A stretch of DNA of 64,000 nucleotides, taken from Escherichia phage PSD2001. Below, in pieces: positions 8,680 through 63,489 of the stretch (position 1 is its first letter; each line of letters opens with the position of its first letter). The notes below the pieces were generated by a model that worked only from the letters and a program-made list of their open reading frames with translations, did not search any database and had not been told where the DNA came from. The stretch is from sequence record OK254198.1; one strand, written 5' to 3'. Made by a program: the position numbers and the translations under genes.

Positions 8680-8907
8680 TTATCCCTTAATAGATTTCAT
8701 GTAATTTGATGCATATGATTGTACCACAGTACGTTTCATATGGGAAGTAGAAACAATCACATCAATTGCTTGTTTACGTTCTTCTTTAGAGTTTGCCAGT
8801 TTGAACATGTCAAAGTAGTAGTAGCAAGCTTCTTTGTTAGATTTGAATTTGATGTTGATGTATTCTTGACCTTCATTCTGTTGTGCAGTAAACATTTTAT
8901 TCTCCAA
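8680..8907 (-). CDS. Hypothetical protein (75 aa)
   Basis: First ORF downstream of promoter cassette 8945-8974. Confidence 0.45.
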   Translation of the reverse strand: MENKMFTAQQNEGQEYINIKFKSNKEACYYYFDMFKLANSKEERKQAIDVIVSTSHMKRTVVQSYASNYMKSIKG

Positions 8908-8976: not shown

Positions 8977-8983
8977 CTTTTTT

Positions 8984-9011
8984 TAAAATAAAAAAGGACC
9001 CCGAAGGGTCC
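8984..9011 (-). terminator. Rho-independent terminator downstream of gene 52
   Basis: GGACCC-cgaa-GGGTCC hairpin followed by a T-run on the minus strand. Confidence 0.6.
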
Positions 9012-10634: not shown

Positions 10635-10816
10635 TTGTTAACCGCTGATTCCAGAAATTTGACTAAGGCATCCAGTACAAACCATGTGCAAATAAATCCT
10701 GCAAAAAGAGTACTTGGGACCCATACACCTGTAGCAAAAAGAGTCACAGCAACGATAACAGCTACGAGCCAGATAAAAGTAAAAACTGTTTGCATATTTT
10801 CCTCAAGGGCGTCCAA
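10631..10816 (-). CDS. Small membrane protein (61 aa), possibly ac-like
   Basis: Two predicted transmembrane helices; position between 52 and ndd matches the T4 ac/stp region. Confidence 0.4.
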
Positions 10817-10884
10817 AGACGCCAGTTAATTTCAGATTATGACGATGCCATTGCATCACGTGCTCATTATGGAAATTACTCATA

Positions 10885-11334
10885 TTAATAGCTCTGCAGA
10901 ATGAATTTAAAGTTATCAGCAAGCATGCGATTCATTTCTGAAAGGGTCTGACAATCAGAACTATGTGAGCGTGTGAACGCCATCGCAATTTGACCTTTAC
11001 CATAACCAGTTGTCAAAGGTTTCATTTTAGAAACTGGAACAAACAGGACTTCATAGATAACACCATTGTTCGCCATTGTGCGCGACAGTTGTGAACGCTG
11101 TTTGCGGATGTGACTTAATACAGTGTCAAACCCTTGTTGTGAACGTTGGTTACCAACGTAAAAACGTGCAGCAACAATACGTGATTCGCCTTCACCTTTA
11201 ACCACGAAATAAAAACCTGGTTGGGTGATAGCTTCTTTAGTTGGACGCCCTACAACATAATTGCCATTATGGATGTGAGCAACAGTGGTAGCGCCAGCAT
11301 TCAGTACGTCACGACGGGTCATGTAAGTAGTCAT
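10885..11334 (-). CDS. ndd: Nucleoid disruption protein Ndd
   Basis: 149 aa; NAGAT...PGFYF...[28 protein letters not shown]...PLTTG.GKGQ.A.AFTR.H.....[13 protein letters not shown] matches T4 Ndd. Confidence 0.85.
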
Positions 11335-11372
11335 ATTAATTTCCTCAGTAAGTTAAAGTTTTGTGCTCCAGT

Positions 11373-11394
11373 GGGGTCATTATACTCTGACCCC
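11373..11394 (-). promoter_or_regulatory. Inverted repeat GGGGTCA/TGACCCC enclosing the -10 box of an early promoter
   Basis: Perfect 7-bp arms flank TTATACTC; similar structures at 22026-22047 and 52553-52574. Confidence 0.4.
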
Positions 11395-11408
11395 AAGAGT
11401 TTGTACAC
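11379..11408 (-). promoter_or_regulatory. T4-type early promoter upstream of ndd
   Basis: Minus strand: GTGTAC, 18 nt, TATAAT. Confidence 0.5.
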
Positions 11409-11776
11409 TATTTTTGAAGTTGTTCTAAAATAAATCCGCTGGTGTAAAAGGGAGCATTATAAACCTTGTTCAGTGGGTTCAAAGCCTGTCCGTAAGTATC
11501 ACATAGTTCTTTGATAACATTTTCATAGCTTACATAATAACCACTATGATAATACGGGTCCATACTCATACGAAATTTAATGAACCGATAAAAGCCTGTT
11601 TCTGGGTCTTGAACGAAAACGAAATCAGCACTCGTCATAATTTTTGAATCTACGCCGGGAATCATACTTTGATTGAATGCCGCCGATGCATCCTGAAGGC
11701 TGAGTTGTTTAAAGAACATCACCTTAGCATTACCAAAAAAGATTTTAGACATGATAATTTCCTTATTCAGCGTCAA
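11408..11776 (-). CDS. Hypothetical protein (122 aa)
   Basis: Minus-strand ORF in the ndd-denB interval. Confidence 0.5.
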   Translation of the reverse strand: MTLNKEIIMSKIFFGNAKVMFFKQLSLQDASAAFNQSMIPGVDSKIMTSADFVFVQDPETGFYRFIKFRMSMDPYYHSGYYVSYENVIKELCDTYGQALNPLNKVYNAPFYTSGFILEQLQK

Positions 11777-11975
11777 CAGAAATAGCCATCAGTTCATCAA
11801 CAGTAAGACACTGTACACTAGGACCTACGCAAAAACGCTTAGTTGAATCATTGAGGTCTGTAGCATTAACAGGTTGTAATTCGGTCCCAACTTGCAAAGG
11901 AGAAATACGAATAAGTTGTTGGCCATTATGCAATACAAAGCTCTCACCGACTACCACATCTTTAAAAAGTTTCAT
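11763..11975 (-). CDS. Hypothetical protein (70 aa)
   Basis: Minus-strand ORF preceded by the CTGAGGAAAATAT leader. Confidence 0.4.
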   Translation of the reverse strand: MKLFKDVVVGESFVLHNGQQLIRISPLQVGTELQPVNATDLNDSTKRFCVGPSVQCLTVDELMAISVDAE

Positions 11976-12181: not shown

Positions 12182-12286
12182 TCATAAAAACAATTGGGAA
12201 AATGCTCAGGACAACAAACAGTACAAACATGTTCCAAATGGCTTTAAGTAACTTTTTCATAATCATCTCCAGTAGTTGATAGGTTC

Positions 12287-12315
12287 ATTATACTACAACC
12301 ACTGGAGATGTACAC
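12287..12315 (-). promoter_or_regulatory. T4-type early promoter
   Basis: Minus strand: GTGTAC, 17 nt, TATAAT. Confidence 0.4.
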
Positions 12316-12669: not shown

Positions 12670-12708
12670 TTTGTTTCTCCAGTCTGTTTGGTAACTCAGT
12701 ATGAAGCC

Positions 12709-12738
12709 ATTATGCACTGACTCCATACTGATGTACAC
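12709..12738 (-). promoter_or_regulatory. T4-type early promoter
   Basis: Minus strand: GTGTAC, 18 nt, CATAAT; shares the AACTCAGTATG block with other cassettes. Confidence 0.45.
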
Positions 12739-14113: not shown

Positions 14114-14125
14114 AAAGCCTCATTA

Positions 14126-14139
14126 GGGGCCGAAGCCCC
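14126..14139 (-). other. GC-rich hairpin (GGGGC-cgaa-GCCCC) between rIIB and the next gene
   Basis: Perfect 5-bp GC stem with tetraloop, no U-run. Confidence 0.4.
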
Positions 14140-14146
14140 GATTAAT

Positions 14147-17833: not shown

Positions 17834-17881
17834 ATTTTCACCTCAAGGACATCTTAACGCAATTTTTATGGCTTGTACATA

Positions 17882-17902
17882 ATAAAAAAGGACCCGAAGG
17901 TC
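17882..17902 (-). terminator. Rho-independent terminator
   Basis: GGACC-cgaa-GGTCC hairpin followed by a T-run on the minus strand. Confidence 0.55.
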
Positions 17903-17909
17903 CTTTTGG

Positions 17910-18062
17910 CTACTCAACTTTATAGACTTGCCCATATGCGGTATAGTATTCACCATCCCAGGTCTCGCACATAATGGTGACAAAGGATGCAAACAGGGGT
18001 TTAGTATCGGCCCACAGATAACCGTATTCGCCATTTGACAACGTAACCCACCACTTTTTCAT
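17910..18062 (-). CDS. Small hypothetical protein (50 aa)
   Basis: MKKWWVTLSNGEYGYLWADTKPLF...; GGAGA Shine-Dalgarno 5 nt upstream; preferred over the track ORF 17843-18034. Confidence 0.3.
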   Translation of the reverse strand: MKKWWVTLSNGEYGYLWADTKPLFASFVTIMCETWDGEYYTAYGQVYKVE

Positions 18063-18104
18063 GGACTTCTCCTATAAGACGGGAGAATATTCTCCCACAT
18101 CTAT

Positions 18105-19937: not shown

Positions 19938-19983
19938 CTTTCCTCTTGTGTATGGAGGTATTATAAGTCACATATTTTAAAGC

Positions 19984-20006
19984 AAAAAGGCCCGAAGGCC
20001 TTTTAT
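19984..20006. terminator. Bidirectional rho-independent terminator
   Basis: GGCC-cgaa-GGCC hairpin flanked by an A-run upstream and a T-run downstream. Confidence 0.5.
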
Positions 20007-21497: not shown

Positions 21498-21989
21498 TTA
21501 GGCAAAATGAATATCAGCATACTCAACGATAAAGCTCTCAGGAACAACCTTAAAGGTTCCAAGGAATACGATATTATACAGTTTGACACCTTCTTCAACC
21601 CACTGGTCGGTGATGTAACCGGACATACTAGTGGTTTCATAAGTCGGACCGTACTTGCAATTGTATTCAAACGGTTTAGGTGAAACGAAAAAGACACCTT
21701 TACCTAATTTCCATTTAAAATCAACCCCAACATGAGACTGGTCGATGGTTTCAACTTCTTCAACCACAGGGGCGATATATCCAGTAAATTCAGTTGATTC
21801 CAGGAATTTAGGATGTACATAAGCCAATTGAGTTTCAGCATGACCATGTTTAGGAATAATACGCACTTTAACTTCTTTAATTCCACCCACTAAATTAGTG
21901 CGAAGACCTACAACCTCAACAAAACGACCAGCAGCTTTAGAACGAGATTCTTTAGAAACACGTACAATATCACCAGCTTCAACTTTCAT
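21498..21989 (-). CDS. Hypothetical protein (163 aa); C-terminal domain paralogous to the next gene
   Basis: C-terminus ITDQWVEEGVKLYNIVFLGTFKVVPESFIVE parallels the C-terminus of ORF 22069-22824; size is close to T4 MotB (162 aa) but unverified. Confidence 0.5.
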   Translation of the reverse strand: MKVEAGDIVRVSKESRSKAAGRFVEVVGLRTNLVGGIKEVKVRIIPKHGHAETQLAYVHPKFLESTEFTGYIAPVVEEVETIDQSHVGVDFKWKLGKGVFFVSPKPFEYNCKYGPTYETTSMSGYITDQWVEEGVKLYNIVFLGTFKVVPESFIVEYADIHFA

Positions 21990-22031
21990 AATTTTCTCTC
22001 TTGGTTAATAAGTTTATTCTCCAGTGGGACC

Positions 22032-22061
22032 ATTATACTCTGGCCCCAAGAGTTTGTACAC
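22032..22061 (-). promoter_or_regulatory. T4-type early promoter
   Basis: Minus strand: GTGTAC, 18 nt, TATAAT; -10 sits inside inverted repeat 22026-22047. Confidence 0.5.
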
Positions 22062-22068
22062 TTTAAAT

Positions 22069-22824
22069 TTAATTAAAAATTTCAACAACCATGGAACGTG
22101 GTACAACAGTAAATTCACCAGCATGGACAACGTTCAGGAGTTCAACACCATCCTCAATCCACTGGTCTGTTACCCAACCACAAATGGAACTGTTAAATGG
22201 GCGTTTGATTTGAACTGGTTTACACAACAAGTCAATAGGGTCACCCAGTTCGCTAACTTCTTTCAGCAGCACAGATTCACGCGGATAAAGGATAGCTTCA
22301 AGATTGTCACCTGATTCATTGACTGCAGTAAATTCAAAGATGCTTTGGTGATTGTGGTACTTAACTGTTTTAACGGTAAATGGAGTAAATCCAAAAATAC
22401 CTTTCAGTACGCGCCAACCAGCATGCATTGCAACAGTCTTTCCAAATTGACTATCATCTTCAATAAGCTGATAGGTTTTACCAACTTTGATAGGAGTTTC
22501 TTCAACTTCTTTGAAGAGTTCAATCTCAGCTTCATAAACCATAATTTTTTCTACTTCATTAGTATCAAGGCGACGTGCATGCAGAATATATGCTTTATCA
22601 AACCAGTTACTTTTTACAAAAGTTTCAACAATAAATTCGCCTTCACCTAAAGCATCAGTCAAAGTATTATATCCAGAAACCATAGCTGCGTTTTGAATAA
22701 TAGGTTCAATCAGTTGATAAGTTTTGTTAATTTCAATAGTCATATTTTGTTTCTCAAGTTTTAATGGTTTAATTGGGCGAACATACATACTTACAACATC
22801 AAAGTCAATAAATTCTGGTTTCAT
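22069..22824 (-). CDS. Hypothetical protein (251 aa) with internal repeat
   Basis: KTYQLIE occurs twice; C-terminus VTDQWIEDGVELLNVVHAGEFTVVPRSMVVE is paralogous to the previous gene. Confidence 0.5.
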   Translation of the reverse strand: MKPEFIDFDVVSMYVRPIKPLKLEKQNMTIEINKTYQLIEPIIQNAAMVSGYNTLTDALGEGEFIVETFVKSNWFDKAYILHARRLDTNEVEKIMVYEAEIELFKEVEETPIKVGKTYQLIEDDSQFGKTVAMHAGWRVLKGIFGFTPFTVKTVKYHNHQSIFEFTAVNESGDNLEAILYPRESVLLKEVSELGDPIDLLCKPVQIKRPFNSSICGWVTDQWIEDGVELLNVVHAGEFTVVPRSMVVEIFN

Positions 22825-23081
22825 TATGCAACCTTATTGAACATCGCCAGTTGATTAGGTTGTACAACCATAATTTCACGACGACCTTTTGCATTTGACA
22901 CGTTCAGGTAGATGCCTTTGTTCATGTCTGTTTCTTTATCATATACCGCAATTTTATTGACAGTAAAGATTTTACCACGAATATTTGTAAATGCACATTC
23001 AAACGCTTTAGTCAGACCTGCTTCAGCAGCTTGAAGAGCAGACATTTCATATTGTTGGCCAATTTCAAAAGAAGTAATCAT
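22824..23081 (-). CDS. Hypothetical protein (85 aa)
   Basis: Start at the ATG at 23081; the track N-terminus (ISSTTDEDNKM) is the translated shared 5' leader. Confidence 0.45.
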   Translation of the reverse strand: MITSFEIGQQYEMSALQAAEAGLTKAFECAFTNIRGKIFTVNKIAVYDKETDMNKGIYLNVSNAKGRREIMVVQPNQLAMFNKVA

Positions 23082-23090
23082 TTTGTTATC

Positions 23091-23109
23091 CTCATCAGTA
23101 GTTGATGAG
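23091..23109 (-). promoter_or_regulatory. Shared 5' leader hairpin partly sequestering the Shine-Dalgarno
   Basis: mRNA CUCAUCA-ACUAC-UGAUGAG-GA: perfect 7-bp stem whose 3' arm overlaps GAGGA; variants recur at 27206, 33923, 35553, 53526, 39569. Confidence 0.4.
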
Positions 23110-23113
23110 ATGA

Positions 23114-23142
23114 TTATGTCTCTTTCCATTGGCCTTGTACAC
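23114..23142 (-). promoter_or_regulatory. T4-type early promoter
   Basis: Minus strand: GTGTAC, 17 nt, CATAAT. Confidence 0.4.
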
Positions 23143-26582: not shown

Positions 26583-27197
26583 TCAGTAAGAAAGAACGGA
26601 AAGATTCCATAATTTATAGTCTTCCCATCTATAAATGCTCTCAATAGAGTCCACGCGTAGCGTAGTTCCCGCAGGGAACATCATCTCATCTTCATCATTT
26701 ACTAATTGCAAGTTTGAAGAACGAGTTATTTCAGGATATAGTCCATTGAACTCTTCAGGAGGTGCCGCACAAATCATTTTAAAAATCGCTTCCTGATAAT
26801 CAAATGCGAATGGTGCATCATTAATACAGAAAATATTTTTGGTTCCATAGAAGCTAAAGGAAGCAAAGTTACGCGCAACACTGAAATCTTTGGAGAAACT
26901 CATTACACGGTCAAACTCAATCGTAGCACCAACACATCCTACGGTTTCAAGATATGCCAAAGTTTTCTTAGAAATCCCGCGATATAACTTACCAGGCACA
27001 ACAGAAGTCAAATTCTTACGAATAATTTTGTTCAAAGTTTCCTGGATAGTGTCTGGCTTATTTTCCATGCACTGCCAGAGTGTACTCTGTTCCAACTCAG
27101 AGTAAATTTCATCAATTTCAATCTGGGTATTTTCACGAAAATATTCACATTTAACTGCATTGATGTACTCTGCTAATTGGTGACTTGCGTACAGCAT
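26583..27197 (-). CDS. ADP-ribosyltransferase, ModA/ModB family (204 aa)
   Basis: R-S-E triad candidates: LYRG, SFSKDF, acidic DEDEMMF; start at the ATG after the shared leader; paralog of the adjacent gene. Confidence 0.5.
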   Translation of the reverse strand: MLYASHQLAEYINAVKCEYFRENTQIEIDEIYSELEQSTLWQCMENKPDTIQETLNKIIRKNLTSVVPGKLYRGISKKTLAYLETVGCVGATIEFDRVMSFSKDFSVARNFASFSFYGTKNIFCINDAPFAFDYQEAIFKMICAAPPEEFNGLYPEITRSSNLQLVNDEDEMMFPAGTTLRVDSIESIYRWEDYKLWNLSVLSY

Positions 27198-27241
27198 TTT
27201 ATTATCCTCATCAGTAGTTGATAGGAACATCTTAACGTGTC

Positions 27242-29647: not shown

Positions 29648-29692
29648 AGTATTCTCCTCTGTAGTTGAGATAATTATACCATCTCTATTAAA

Positions 29693-29719
29693 AGCAAAAA
29701 AGGGAACCCGAAGGTTCCC
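29693..29719 (-). terminator. Rho-independent terminator downstream of soc
   Basis: GGGAACC-cgaa-GGTTCCC hairpin followed by a T-run on the minus strand. Confidence 0.6.
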
Positions 29720-29724
29720 TATAA

Positions 29725-32218: not shown

Positions 32219-32249
32219 AGTTTCCTCATTTCAATGGCCCCGAGGACCA

Positions 32250-33916: not shown

Positions 33917-33974
33917 TTCAATCTCCTCAGTAGTTGATAGGGATAATATACTGCATTATCCCTTTGATGTACAC

Positions 33975-34529: not shown

Positions 34530-34847
34530 TTAGATTTCCTCACAAAACGCCCAGTCTGCATGATAAACTGTTGCGCCTTTAGTATCATTTAAACAAACCA
34601 CGTCAACAGGTGCAATCACACGATAAAGACGGGGTTCTCCTCCATACGAGCGAGCTGCTCTTCCTGCATAGATACGCGCCAAACCAATATCTTCAGTAAA
34701 AAACACACGCCCTAAATTTTTCTTACGCCCAACTTCTGACAGAACACCAGTTACATCAGGAGGACAAAGCATATTTTGGATTCCAGCATTAGAGCTTGAC
34801 CCATGATAATAAACTTTGTATTCTGCCTTGCAATCAATGGTTTTCAT
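34530..34847 (-). CDS. Hypothetical protein (105 aa)
   Basis: Minus-strand ORF preceded by the shared leader. Confidence 0.45.
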   Translation of the reverse strand: MKTIDCKAEYKVYYHGSSSNAGIQNMLCPPDVTGVLSEVGRKKNLGRVFFTEDIGLARIYAGRAARSYGGEPRLYRVIAPVDVVCLNDTKGATVYHADWAFCEEI

Positions 34848-34885
34848 TTTATTCTCCAGTAGTTGATAGAGTCATTATAACATAA

Positions 34886-34906
34886 GAAAAAGGGGCTGTA
34901 AGCCCC
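34886..34906 (-). terminator. Rho-independent terminator
   Basis: GGGGC-ttaca-GCCCC hairpin followed by TTTTTT on the minus strand. Confidence 0.55.
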
Positions 34907-34915
34907 TTTATTCAC

Positions 34916-35299: not shown

Positions 35300-35545
35300 T
35301 TTTAATTCATTAATTAAATGAAAATCTTGTGCATTGAAAGTAATGAAAAAATAATCATTCCCTTCAACTGAAGCATGACAAGCAACACTACACCAGCGCC
35401 TTGCTCTGTTCAATGAGCAATCCAAAATTTTAAAAGGCTTCAGACCAACAATGTCAGCTGTTCTTTTATTATGCTCACAAATATCAGCATACTTTTGGAG
35501 AGCTTCTTCAGATTTGAACTGGTAATGCACATTAACTAATAACAT
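35297..35545 (-). CDS. Hypothetical protein (82 aa)
   Basis: Minus-strand ORF preceded by the shared leader hairpin and a GTTTACA/TACTAT promoter. Confidence 0.45.
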   Translation of the reverse strand: MLLVNVHYQFKSEEALQKYADICEHNKRTADIVGLKPFKILDCSLNRARRWCSVACHASVEGNDYFFITFNAQDFHLINELK

Positions 35546-35613
35546 TTTATTATCCTCATCAGTAGTTGATGGGATAATAGTACACTCTTTTTATGGTGAT
35601 GTAAACCCCTAAA

Positions 35614-35632
35614 TGAAAAAGACCCGAAGGTC
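35614..35632 (-). terminator. Rho-independent terminator downstream of gene 41
   Basis: GACC-cgaa-GGTC hairpin followed by TTTTT on the minus strand. Confidence 0.5.
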
Positions 35633-42334: not shown

Positions 42335-42393
42335 TTGGTTTCCTTTATAGTCGAGTGATTGACTTTTGTTTTATGACTTGACGCTATTATACT

Positions 42394-42414
42394 ACAAAAG
42401 GGACCGAAGTCCCT
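42394..42414 (-). terminator. Rho-independent terminator downstream of regA
   Basis: GGGAC-cgaa-GTCCC hairpin followed by a T-run on the minus strand. Confidence 0.5.
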
Positions 42415-42424
42415 TTGCTTTAAA

Positions 42425-44323: not shown

Positions 44324-44360
44324 ATATTTTCCTCATATTAGTTTCTACTTTGTACTCCAT

Positions 44361-44374
44361 GGGGCCGGAGCCCC
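44361..44374 (-). other. GC-rich hairpin (GGGGC-cgga-GCCCC) between genes 45 and 44
   Basis: Perfect 5-bp GC stem between the 45 stop and the 44 Shine-Dalgarno; no U-run. Confidence 0.35.
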
Positions 44375-44379
44375 ATTTA

Positions 44380-45537: not shown

Positions 45538-45756
45538 TTAATCAAAGTATTCATATGCAAACCAGGCATTGTGTCTGTTCGCGATTATTTTAACATATTC
45601 TTCACCGAAAGCGTTTTGTAAGTCACGTTCAGTAACAAGGTGTTCATCTTTCGAAAAGGTATTAACTAACACATACCGTTTAATTTCAGGGACAGCCAGT
45701 AAATGCTGCCCGGTTAAAAAATTGCTCATAAATAATATTATCCGTTGCAGTATCAA
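45538..45756 (-). CDS. Hypothetical protein (72 aa)
   Basis: Minus-strand ORF divergent from the HNH gene. Confidence 0.4.
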   Translation of the reverse strand: MILQRIILFMSNFLTGQHLLAVPEIKRYVLVNTFSKDEHLVTERDLQNAFGEEYVKIIANRHNAWFAYEYFD

Positions 45757-45769
45757 ACAAGGGTCTGAT

Positions 45770-46486
45770 ATGAATTATAACATCATTTACCAAAAGCTTA
45801 TTAGCAGAGCATTGAATCGCAAATTAACCACATACTCTGAAAGTCATCACATTATACCCCGTTGTATGGGTGGGGCAGACGATGCTTCAAATCTTGTTGA
45901 TTTAACTCCCGAGGAACATTTCGTTTGTCATCAACTGTTGGTCAAAATGCATCCAAATAATGCTTCTTTGGTCTATGCCGCGCGCATGATGACAGTTTCC
46001 TCACCAAACGCCGACAGAAGCAAAAACAAATTATTTGGATGGCTTCGTCGTAAAAACTTGGAAGCTCAACAAAATAAAATTTTCTCCGATGAAACCAGAA
46101 AGAAAATGTCAGAATCCGCCAAATTAAAACCGAGAGTTGAATGTCCACACTGTGGAAAAACCGGTCTCGTTGGCAATATGAATCGTTGGCATTTTGATAA
46201 CTGTTCCAAAGGTCCAAACAAGGTTGTTCATACTATTCCAGAAAAACAAAAGCAAAAAATTTCAGTAGGATTAAAACAAGCTAAACATGAAATTTTAACT
46301 TGTGAATTTTGTGGTCTTGAAGGTAAAAAGTGTGTTATATCCACTCACCAACAATTCTGCAAATCCAATCCAAACCGGAAGAAAAAGGTGGACCCCAAAA
46401 TTCAGTGTCCACATTGTAATGTAGTCGGTACGCCAGCCAATATGAAACGTTGGCATTTTGATAACTGCAAAATGAAGCCTCAATAA
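45770..46486 (+). CDS. HNH homing endonuclease with three C-terminal zinc-finger-like repeats
   Basis: Start at the ATG at 45770 (MNYNIIYQK...); HNH core SESHHIIPRCMGGADDASNLVDLTPEEHFVCH; repeats ECPHCGKTGLVGNMNRWHFDNC, TCEFCGLEGKKC...QQFCKSN, QCPHCNVVGTPANMKRWHFDNC; opposite strand to all neighbours. Confidence 0.7.
   Translation: MNYNIIYQKLISRALNRKLTTYSESHHIIPRCMGGADDASNLVDLTPEEHFVCHQLLVKMHPNNASLVYAARMMTVSSPNADRSKNKLFGWLRRKNLEAQQNKIFSDETRKKMSESAKLKPRVECPHCGKTGLVGNMNRWHFDNCSKGPNKVVHTIPEKQKQKISVGLKQAKHEILTCEFCGLEGKKCVISTHQQFCKSNPNRKKKVDPKIQCPHCNVVGTPANMKRWHFDNCKMKPQ
45770..46486 (+). mobile_element. Free-standing homing endonuclease gene inserted between 45.2 and 46
   Basis: Single opposite-strand gene wedged between conserved replication/recombination genes, the usual arrangement for T-even mob/seg elements. 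Confidence 0.55.
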
Positions 46487-49783: not shown

Positions 49784-49825
49784 ATACTCTCCTCAGTTGG
49801 TTCATTTTATCATCCCGAATATAAA

Positions 49826-49850
49826 GCAAAAAAGGAAGCGCTAGGCTTCC
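49826..49850 (-). terminator. Rho-independent terminator
   Basis: GGAAGC-gcta-GCTTCC hairpin followed by TTTTTT on the minus strand. Confidence 0.55.
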
Positions 49851-51931: not shown

Positions 51932-52187
51932 TTAAGTAGTCCAGGAATTCGTCTAATGTCATGCCTTCCGCCCAAGCTTCCCAAGCATCGATTTTAGTGT
52001 ACTTGGTTTTAGTACACATAGGATAGATTTTGAATTCATACCCCATTGAAATGAAATAATTTAAAGTCCTTTGTAAATAGTAACCTTGACTAATTTTATG
52101 AGCTCGGCGAATTCCATTAGCATACGTATGTTTGTATGATACTATTACCGCAACACCTTCAGGTAATTCAATAGCGGGACACATCAT
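51924..52187 (-). CDS. Hypothetical protein (87 aa)
   Basis: Minus-strand ORF abutting neighbours. Confidence 0.45.
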   Translation of the reverse strand: MMCPAIELPEGVAVIVSYKHTYANGIRRAHKISQGYYLQRTLNYFISMGYEFKIYPMCTKTKYTKIDAWEAWAEGMTLDEFLDYLND

Positions 52188-52534
52188 TTCGCACCCTTAA
52201 TAATTTTCAGGTCAACAAAACCTTTCTTGCGCTGGGAGTTCATACGCTTGATGGCTTTATCGGAAACTTCTTTGTTTTCACGTGGGAGCGGTAGACCAAA
52301 CGCTACTACATCAAATTCATTCAGGATATACTGGACAAGGCTTTCACGAATACGCGCTTTACCCATTGTCTGACCTTCTGCAATAATTAGCTTCTGTACA
52401 TCGCCTTCCCACTGGTCCAGAATTTCAGGGGTAACGAAACCAGATTTCATGAGAGTGTTGACTTTAGCAAACGCGAAATTAGCGATGGTGTTAGTGATAG
52501 ATGCAGTCATGATATATTCCTCAGTCTCATTCAA
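52184..52534 (-). CDS. Hypothetical protein (116 aa)
   Basis: Minus-strand ORF downstream of inverted repeat 52553-52574. Confidence 0.45.
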   Translation of the reverse strand: MNETEEYIMTASITNTIANFAFAKVNTLMKSGFVTPEILDQWEGDVQKLIIAEGQTMGKARIRESLVQYILNEFDVVAFGLPLPRENKEVSDKAIKRMNSQRKKGFVDLKIIKGAK

Positions 52535-52582
52535 TTAAAATTTTATTATCCTGGGGTCATTATACCATGACCCCGTTGGTTT

Positions 52583-53338: not shown

Positions 53339-53517
53339 AATTTAGGTCCTTTTGCAACTGTATTGAACAAGCTACGGTCACACACCATCAACGGAGCATC
53401 AGGCCATTTCAAAGGACGATACCATACATCTTGGTCAGTCACTTTGGTTACTTGTACAGGATAACCATTTACAGAATAATACTGGTCGGCTTTAATTTCT
53501 TTATCTTCAATAGCCAT
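53335..53517 (-). CDS. Hypothetical protein (60 aa)
   Basis: Start at the ATG after the shared leader; the track N-terminus (IPSTTDEENKM) is translated leader. Confidence 0.4.
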   Translation of the reverse strand: MAIEDKEIKADQYYSVNGYPVQVTKVTDQDVWYRPLKWPDAPLMVCDRSLFNTVAKGPKL

Positions 53518-53584
53518 TTTGTTTTCCTCATCAGTAGTTGATGGGATAATGATACACCGTTCAAAGGGGCTTGTACACCCCTTT

Positions 53585-62898: not shown

Positions 62899-63423
62899 TT
62901 ATGCGAGAACCGTCTTTAAACGCTCTTCAAACTTCTGAAGGAGTACCTGGCGCTCTGCTCTTTGTTTGGTATAGGTTTCAATACGCTCTGAAGTGAGATT
63001 GTATTGTTCATTAACTGATTCCCTCATGAATTCAGGAATCTCTTTACACGCCTTGATTTCATTGAACTTATCAAGCACCGCTTGTTGTTCAGCAATCAGA
63101 CCATCATAATATTGGATATCTGATTTGATGTTTTGTACATCAGATTCAGTAGGCATATTTTTCTTTGCTCTTGTCGCTTGATATTCTGCATTAGTCTCTC
63201 TTGACCAGAACAAAGAACGGTTTTTGTTGGTGTTTTTATACACATCAACAATACCAACTGAATCAACAGTCACAATCCAGTTCCAGGCGTTTTTATAAGT
63301 CTGACCACCTGATACTGTAATCTCACCTGCACAAGCAACATCATTAAAGAACTTACTTTGTGCTTCTGATTTAAAATTACCATTATTGTAATTAATCAGA
63401 TTAAAGATTGATTTGGCTTCCAT
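62899..63423 (-). CDS. Hypothetical protein (174 aa)
   Basis: First ORF downstream of promoter 63460-63489. Confidence 0.5.
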   Translation of the reverse strand: MEAKSIFNLINYNNGNFKSEAQSKFFNDVACAGEITVSGGQTYKNAWNWIVTVDSVGIVDVYKNTNKNRSLFWSRETNAEYQATRAKKNMPTESDVQNIKSDIQYYDGLIAEQQAVLDKFNEIKACKEIPEFMRESVNEQYNLTSERIETYTKQRAERQVLLQKFEERLKTVLA

Positions 63424-63459
63424 TTTATTCTCCAGTATTTGGTAACTCAGTATGGGAAC

Positions 63460-63489
63460 ATTATACGTCTATCCCCATACTATGTACAC
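63460..63489 (-). promoter_or_regulatory. T4-type early promoter
   Basis: Minus strand: GTGTAC, 18 nt, TATAAT; shares the AACTCAGTATGG block with other cassettes. Confidence 0.45.

Follow-up and report, generated by a model that had tools for sequence, protein, structure and literature searches.

Why should the -10 box of an early promoter lie within a GC-rich inverted repeat, and is such a repeat read as duplex DNA, by a dimeric protein bound to its two halves, or as a folded single strand, most simply RNA? The question arises at three places (sites 1 to 3) in the stretch of 64,000 nucleotides of phage DNA analyzed here, hereafter the window. By sequence similarity we assign the window to the SP18/VR7 group of T4-type phages (Gaprivervirus): about 3 kb around site 1 are 92-96% identical to coliphages of the T4 type from the SP18/VR7/VR20 group, and the taxonomy given with the SP18 record is Straboviridae, Tevenvirinae, Gaprivervirus. 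The window has a GC content of about 40%, and its early genes are those of the minus strand. Because the genes from about 8 kb onward lie on the minus strand, the features of all three sites are read on that strand.

Anatomy of the three sites

The preliminary description had placed the repeats at positions 11373-11394, 22026-22047, and 52553-52574, and all three are present there. It had further called the repeat perfect, which a window-wide motif search upheld for sites 1 and 3 (GGGGTCA/TGACCCC) and corrected for site 2, where the repeat is imperfect. The plus strand of site 2 reads GGGACCA/TGGCCCC, with six of seven Watson-Crick pairs and one A·C, and its minus (sense) strand reads GGGGCCA/UGGUCCC, a full stem with one G·U; relative to the GGGGTCA stem, this amounts to one T-A to C-G double change and one G·U. 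The exact GGGGTCA/TGACCCC pattern has two matches in the window versus 0.00 expected in shuffles, and the arms at both of these sites reach 8 bp (Table 1). As had been described, the -10 hexamer is shared between the loop and the 3' arm: on the minus strand, the loop holds TATAA, and the 3' arm begins with the final T. The palindrome extends from about -22 to +1, and its center falls at T-12/A-11. Over 50 nt, sites 1 and 2 show 90% identity (repeat family D6), and site 3 shares their arms. Repeat families of such cassettes (D1 to D7) recur through the window, D6 being the one that joins the three sites, which are thus not independent of each other. The palindromes around these -10 boxes are real and far from chance, and the view of them as early promoters of a T4-like phage with the -10 box within a conserved inverted repeat is borne out by the sequence.

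Sites 1 and 2 combine GTGTACA and TATAAT at a spacing of 17 bp, as in promoters of the sigma70/T4-early type, and site 3 has an extended -10 box with a weak -35 hexamer. On the 5' side of the -35 region, each has an AT-rich stretch containing the stop codon of the upstream gene (ttcaaaaaTAGtgtaca at site 1, tttTAAttaaatttaaagtgtaca at site 2, and gcgcaaTAAaaacc at site 3). The start codons of ndd (Pfam PF06591; also so annotated in SP18), motB, and a DUF7570 gene lie 40-50 nt downstream of sites 1, 2, and 3, respectively; a Shine-Dalgarno sequence is present in each case, and the genes are co-oriented. The stem of site 1 is prolonged by outer CUCU/GGAG pairs to 11366-11399, and its transcript is predicted to start at the A at 11372.

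Table 1. Features of the three sites and of related elements, with positions in the window
Feature	Position	Strand	Details
Site 1 cassette	11335-11410	-	Between the upstream ORF's stop codon (TAG, 11408-11410) and the ndd start codon (11332-11334)
Site 1 -35 hexamer	11402-11407	-	TGTACA, T4-early type (GTGTACA)
Site 1 -10 hexamer	11379-11384	-	TATAAT
Site 1 stem-loop	11372-11395	-	UGGGGUCA gaguauaa UGACCCCA; 8 bp, arms 11372-11379/11388-11395, loop 8 nt; -18.3 kcal/mol, z -4.15
Site 1 RegB-like motif	11359-11369	-	GGAGCACAAAA; 10/11 to GGA(G/U)RAYARAA; 2 nt past the 3' arm
Site 2 cassette	21990-22068	-	Upstream of motB (21498-21989; Pfam PF17613)
Site 2 -35 hexamer	22055-22060	-	
Site 2 -10 hexamer	22032-22037	-	
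Site 2 stem-loop	22025-22048	-	UGGGGCCA gaguauaa UGGUCCCA; one sense-strand G·U; outer CUCU/GGAG pairs; -17.7 kcal/mol, z -3.6
Site 2 RegB-like motif	22012-22022	-	GGAGAAUAAAC; 10/11 to consensus
Site 3 cassette	52511-52582	-	Upstream of the DUF7570 gene (52184-52510)
Site 3 -10 hexamer	52559-52564	-	-35 poor
Site 3 extended -10 (TGn)	52565-52567	-	TGgTATAAT
Site 3 stem-loop	52553-52574	-	GGGGUCAU gguaua AUGACCCC; 8 bp, arms 52553-52560/52567-52574, loop 6 nt; -15.9 kcal/mol, z -3.3
Site 3 RegB motif	52541-52551	-	GGAUAAUAAAA; exact consensus; 2 nt past the 3' arm, about 30 nt upstream of the Shine-Dalgarno sequence
Early promoter, -10 63460-63465	63449-63481	-	Stem AGUAUGGGGAUA/UGUUCCCAUACU over the -10 box, two G·U; z -3.3
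Early promoter, -10 TATATT 33945-33950	33939-33963	-	Perfect 9-bp stem AGGGAUAAU/AUUAUCCCU over the -10 box
Early promoter, -10 CATAAT 12709-12714	12696-12731	-	14-bp stem, two G·U, register as at sites 1 to 3
Cassette with canonical terminator	34885-34912	-	Overlaps the -35 hexamer; AAAGGGGCU uac AGCCCCUUU then UUCUU
RegB consensus match	8895-8905	-	
RegB consensus match	23081-23091	-	
RegB consensus match	27197-27207	-	
RegB consensus match	34847-34857	-	
RegB consensus match	35545-35555	-	
RegB consensus match	49805-49815	-	
RegB consensus match	52541-52551	-	Site 3 motif
RegB consensus match	63423-63433	-	

Two further observations concern the surroundings of these promoters. The -35 hexamer TGTACA (at sites 1 and 2 and elsewhere) is its own reverse complement, so that simple scans also report mirror-image promoters on the plus strand, for example, at 11402-11431; these are probably artifacts. 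The 251-aa ORF upstream of motB (22069-22824, minus strand) ends in a MotB-like domain (Pfam motB; E value, 1e-8; residues 211 to 247), which places site 2 between two tandem paralogues (21498-21989 and 22069-22824). A scan of viral contigs with GTGTACA-N17-TATAATG was left out of the analysis; among the matches listed, most were chance occurrences in unrelated contigs.

Orthologous promoters and the pattern of base changes

Orthologous loci were fetched by means of the downstream protein, a choice that is independent of the stem. At the ndd promoter, VR-type relatives have the window sequence, and JS98-type phages have CGAGAAUCAU-guuaua-AUGGUUCUCG around TATAAT, with the register kept through four double changes and one U·G. 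At the motB promoter, a VR20-like genome has the perfect GGGGTCA/TGACCCC versus GGGGCCA/TGGTCCC in the window, T4 itself has GGGACCA-gagtataa-TGGTCCC, and JS98-type phages have the stem GAGAGCCAU/AUGGCUCUC, the variants of which (GAGGGCCAU, ...CUCUU, and GAGAGCUAU) each amount to a sense-strand G·U. The site 3 orthologues in Klebsiella phage Marfa and Enterobacter phages read UGAGGAC/GUCCUCA or GAGGACA/UGUCCUC. The half-sites GGGGTCA, GAGAGCCAT, CGAGAATCAT, TGAGGAC, GGGACCA, and GGGGATAT all occur in one register, so that the stems comprise six or more unrelated sequences. In Tequatrovirus-like phages, ndd is not preceded by a promoter, but a hairpin has been kept there (GGCCGC/GCGGCC, with GGCCGU variants) and is followed by GGAG.

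To these comparisons we added an ungapped alignment of 19 distinct sequences, comprising 14 orthologues and 5 paralogues, the latter picked for having stems. The last base of one row (s2_L143) is erroneous but lies outside the structure and leaves the counts unaffected. Scored against the in-register structure, 82% of the cells form pairs, only standard pairs (100%) occur at the six core positions, and double changes are seen in nine of the ten pairs. The covariation score of 0.60 compares with 0.31 for shuffled alignments, 0 of 500 of which attain the observed value, and sliding the partner columns yields 0.27 at most. Imperfect core pairs account for about 12 cells, all of them G·U or U·G and none A·C, a count in which related sequences share events and which we estimate to represent about 10 independent ones. 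An unsupervised scan of 186 promoter-like sites showed the same bias, with 15 G·T versus 3 A·C against a background ratio of 1.2-1.5 to 1. The preliminary description had made much depend on whether the palindrome is conserved in the orthologous promoters of relatives: the pairing is conserved across genera in a fixed register, but the sequence is not conserved beyond the genus. This pairing, together with exceptions that are exclusively G·U, favors a hairpin of the sense strand, most simply in RNA, over a protein-binding site.

Folding of the sense-strand RNA gave z scores of -4.2, -3.6, and -3.3 for sites 1, 2, and 3 (energies in Table 1). The antisense strand of site 2 folds with only -10.6 kcal/mol (z, -1.3), such that its hairpin is stable on the sense strand only. 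A stem of comparable quality is found at about 1% of random positions. None of the three hairpins is followed by a U tract, their tails being ACUGGAGC, ACUGGAGA, and AGGAUAAU; a terminator scan of the window found nothing terminator-like at the three sites, and an Rfam search with the whole window retrieved no family.

A second constant element is a motif directly after the stem that resembles the target of the RegB endoribonuclease. For strong sites, which lie in intergenic regions of early transcripts and are cut at GG*AG/U, PMC3014915 gives the consensus GGA(G/U)RAYARAA, citing Durand et al. 2006. Each orthologue has a sequence that fits this consensus, starting 1-6 nt past the stem, and at the three sites it is distinct from the Shine-Dalgarno sequence of ndd (GAGGAA at 11341-11346), motB, or the site 3 gene. 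The window contains eight exact matches to GGAKRAYARAA, all on the sense strand, versus 0.9 expected; most of these double as the Shine-Dalgarno sequence of an early gene, and the copy at site 3 does not. RNA structure is known to protect GGAG from RegB (PMC3014915). The regB gene is annotated in SP18, a member of the same genus, and by synteny it would lie about 6 kb past the end of the window.

Relationship to PeSLs and to other hairpins of the window

In promoter, stem-loop, gene arrangement, and repetition, the three sites show the sequence features by which PeSLs are recognized. These promoter-early stem-loop cassettes were described in RB49/phi1 by Arbiol et al. 2010 (PMC2839356), and Comeau et al. 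2014 (PMC4122927) added T4/PST and KVP40/nt-1. The published stem-loops occupy five positions, among the commonest of which is overlap of the -10 box, and are often of the polyG...polyC type with G-T pairs (PMC2839356, PMC4122927). Arbiol et al. proposed for them a terminator or attenuator role, as well as recombination between cassettes; their in vivo work, by reporter fusions and inverse PCR, covered promoter activity, attenuator activity, and mini-circle formation (PMC2839356). The likeness comprises the sigma70-like early promoter, the AT-rich upstream stretch containing the upstream stop codon, the G-run/C-run stem-loop with G-T pairs over the -10 box, and the Shine-Dalgarno sequence and ATG at the 3' end, in addition to the occurrence of many copies among small early genes and of repeats conserved over about 50-100 bp (here 90% over 50 nt). 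Direct inspection of the intergenic regions of RB49 revealed that PeSL199/198 (TTGACA-ccggatc-GGGGATAT-agcata-ATATCCCC) has the geometry and register of the sites described here. In PeSL211/210 (GGGGAT-cacgt-ATCCCC), the element tested as a terminator, the stem-loop lies between the hexamers and is likewise without a U run. Unlike the published PeSLs, the sites here have GTGTACA rather than TTGACA as the -35 element (site 3 having only a poor one) and a RegB-like motif directly after the stem.

In T4, site 2 has its orthologue in the early promoter of motB (NC_000866, about 7.18-7.22 kb). There, TTTACA-aactctt-GGGACCA-gagtataa-TGGTCCC-gt-GGAGTATAAAA contains a 7-bp repeat that is perfect and surrounds TATAAT in an unchanged register; its stem differs from the window copy (GGGGCCA/TGGTCCC) at two positions. 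We found no published description of PeSLs in the SP18/VR7 group (Gaprivervirus), and a limited literature search turned up no published remark on a palindrome in T4 early promoters or at motB, nor maps of T4 3' ends. PeSLs are also associated with insertions, deletions, or replacements that distinguish close relatives, whereas no indel falls exactly at the sites described here. Because there is no homology break relative to the closest relatives at any of the three sites, we make no claim that these copies mediated rearrangement. Cassette-only matches are found in relatives at nonsyntenic places. SP18 has an extra cassette (locus L001, 3190-3269) with the stem GGGAGCA/TGTTCCC, including a G·U, between ndd.1 and gp277; at the window counterpart (11763-11780), the ndd.1 and gp277 ORFs overlap with no cassette between them, and the 3' end of the upstream ORF also differs.

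We compiled a catalogue of the minus-strand promoters of the window and compared stems across the early and middle promoters. Several other early promoters bear different stems over the -10 box (Table 1), and the MotA-box middle promoters are mostly without a stem. The canonical terminators of the window (34885-34912, 29690-29720, and 8980-9011) have a GC stem, often with a UUCG loop, followed by T5-8. The one overlapping a -35 hexamer is also given, at about 34890-34912, as GGGGC-uuaca-GCCCC-UUUUU with the -35 in its loop and the promoter at 34879, and a like arrangement, with the -35 held in the loop of a terminator, occurs near 53554. Rho-independent terminators that overlap the next promoter are thus found in this genome; unlike these, the three sites lack a U tract and have the stem over the -10 rather than the -35 box. 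Terminators of the UUCG tetraloop type (e.g., AGGACCC-uucg-GGGUCCU-UUUUU) were seen at 8984-9011, 17877-17904, 29691-29718, and 49823-49850 (plus-strand coordinates), with more near 19960-20000, 35600-35630, and 42390-42420; they often adjoin an early promoter or a MotA-box middle promoter (29678) immediately downstream.

Hairpins of the same kind also occur without promoters. One, ATGGGGC-uccg-GCCCCAU-GGAGUACAAAG (in DNA letters, ATGGGGC-tccg-GCCCCAT-GGAGTACAAAG), lies at 44324-44379 on the minus strand, and other promoter-less intercistronic GC hairpins without a U tract, placed right before a GGAG/Shine-Dalgarno sequence, are at 14114-14146, 10796-10884, 18035-18104, and 32219-32249 (minus strand). 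Their layout is that of the hairpin before ndd in the Tequatrovirus-like phages (loci L130-L135). Intercistronic stem-loops such as REP-type stabilizers and the stable UUCG hairpins of T4 shield upstream mRNA from 3' exonucleases. The hairpins of the three sites resemble these in being GC rich, without a U tract, and located between cotranscribed genes beside an A/U-rich stretch open to endonucleases; unlike them, they share bases with the promoter spacer, the -10 box, and the discriminator.

The window also contains a second cassette family, read on the minus strand at 23080-23118, 27196-27234, 35544-35582, and 53516-53554 (plus-strand coordinates), in which a small leader hairpin, (C)UCAUCA-acuac-UGAUGA(G), runs into the Shine-Dalgarno/RegB-like sequence GAGGAUAAYAAAAUG. 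Sister copies at 12254-12292 and 34841-34879 read AUCAACUACUGGAG and are without the hairpin. Elsewhere, crude gene calling found no minus-strand ORF of at least 40 aa in a stretch of 565 nt (45730-46294), where there may be a plus-strand gene; the stretch is linked to a 30-nt direct repeat (46174-46203 and 46438-46467; 97% identical).

Possible roles of the stem-loop

We propose, with a probability of roughly 0.6, that each site is a PeSL-type cassette whose hairpin, formed in read-through RNA, acts as an intercistronic boundary, that promoter and hairpin overlap for lack of space, and that the cassette is a site of recombination as well. Within about 75 bp, it packs the upstream stop codon, an A-rich stretch, a strong sigma70/T4-early promoter, and a GC-rich stem-loop over the -10 box, followed by the RegB-like GGA(G/U)NAYAAA motif and the leader and Shine-Dalgarno sequence of the early gene that comes next. 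At sigma70 promoters, transcription starts 6-8 nt past the -10 box. By this spacing, the promoter's own transcript would begin at the last base of the 3' arm; as that arm ends at about +1, this transcript would lack the hairpin, which would be present only in RNA that reads through from an upstream early promoter. The preliminary description had suggested a hairpin in the nascent transcript that modulates initiation: it was right as to the kind of element, an RNA hairpin, but this predicted geometry would rule out a hairpin in the promoter's own transcript. In the read-through RNA, the hairpin might attenuate transcription into the next unit; alternatively, or in addition, endonucleolytic cleavage of the A-rich sequence immediately downstream, by RegB or RNase E, could leave it as a 3'-terminal hairpin on the upstream message. 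The overlap of the stem with the -10 box would result from an intergenic space that cannot accommodate both elements side by side, and the cassette, being a conserved repeat of at least 50 nt, could also serve recombination between cassettes. That the hairpin does not depend on the promoter is seen in the Tequatrovirus-like phages, which have it before ndd, and in the promoter-less hairpins of the window. The role of the stem-loop in read-through RNA is less certain than the reading of these sites as two overlapping elements.

Several other explanations deserve to be weighed against this proposal. It had been suggested that the palindrome is an operator, with a dimeric phage or host protein binding the GGGGTCA half-sites on the duplex and blocking or activating the promoter, and two sites with perfect symmetry and identical half-sites over the core promoter are what such a protein would call for; the symmetric T-A to C-G change of site 2 could also be tolerated by a dimer. 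We nevertheless reject this idea as very improbable because half-site conservation fails and G·T is preferred over A·C: orthologous promoters keep the pairing and not the sequence, with at least six unrelated stems in one register, and the single-sided changes are all sense-strand G·U, an asymmetry that is meaningless for duplex DNA. Moreover, this particular sequence has only three copies in 64 kb, with other early promoters bearing other stems. T4 early promoters are not known to have a sequence-specific repressor. How they are shut off is not understood, according to a review (PMC3014915). The covariation likewise strongly disfavors a palindrome without any function of its own that was merely carried along in the copying of one promoter cassette to three positions, an account to which we give hardly any chance. 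The near identity of sites 1 and 2 and the arms shared by site 3 would fit such copying, but double compensatory changes in register between genera, the difference at motB between close relatives (VR20-like and window stems), and zero nonstandard pairs at the six core positions in 19 sequences would not. Separate selection of a GC-rich spacer and discriminator for promoter kinetics was rejected because the JS98-type stems are AT rich yet complementary; an RNase III site was also set aside, since the stems are only 8-12 bp.

Two further possibilities are unlikely, though less so. A hairpin or cruciform at the DNA level, in single-stranded or supercoiled DNA, might tune promoter opening or provide a break or pairing site for PeSL recombination and mini-circles. 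Several genera keep the register centered on the -12/-11 junction, cassette copies are differently placed in relatives, and in the PeSLs, one crossover was mapped within the loop of a stem-loop and sequencing was blocked on a single-stranded template (Arbiol et al., PMC2839356). As G·T is tolerated in DNA hairpins, a sense-strand hairpin of single-stranded DNA would also fit the bias. A cruciform, however, uses both strands, and a G·T on one is an A·C on the other; it therefore predicts no strand bias, whereas the bias seen is strong. In addition, a 7- to 10-bp stem with a 6- to 8-nt loop is short for extrusion, and the promoter-less hairpins at like intercistronic positions point to a function that is not tied to promoter opening. 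The fixed T-12/A-11 register is not demanded by a pure RNA role and may reflect common descent or an unrecognized DNA-level function. The other possibility, put forward by the PeSL authors, is a true terminator, at which almost all transcription from upstream would end immediately before the new promoter fires. In RB49/phi1, the PeSL211/210 stem-loop cut lacZ expression as much as rrnB T1 did (PMC2839356) and likewise has no U tract, and the hairpins here are GC rich and stable. That assay, however, confounds termination with changes in RNA stability or translation. It is doubtful that intrinsic termination is efficient here because the three hairpins lack a T run and were negative in the terminator scan, while the genome uses canonical terminators with UUCG loops elsewhere. 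A boundary role, in the form of partial attenuation, a protective 3' hairpin, or both, appears to fit better.

A more speculative extension, which we consider rather unlikely, combines the stem-loop and the RegB-type motif into one RNA module that would sort transcripts by promoter of origin, with the hairpin acting in read-through RNA as opposed to an exposed RegB site at +3 in the promoter's own RNA. In read-through RNA, the outer CUCU/GGAG pairs of sites 1 and 2 might mask the cleavage site, or the hairpin might cap the upstream message after cleavage, and RNA from the embedded promoter, without the 5' arm, would begin with the exposed RegB site at +3. If this were true, the stem over the -10 box would be a device for origin-dependent decay, conserved from RB49 to T4.

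As elements of this class have been described and even T4 has one, its novelty is low, and no new regulator is revealed. Modest additions to the published description are the in-register covariation, which spans six or more genus-level groups, has G·U as its only exceptions, and constitutes sequence evidence for selection on the sense strand, most simply as RNA, as well as the constant presence of a RegB-type motif after the stem. For genome annotation, the implication is that palindromes of this kind should not be labeled operators. Among the carriers of PeSLs, we can now place the phages of the SP18/VR7 type and the motB promoter of T4, and the proposed boundary bears on how densely packed early transcription units may be insulated from each other in T4-type phages.
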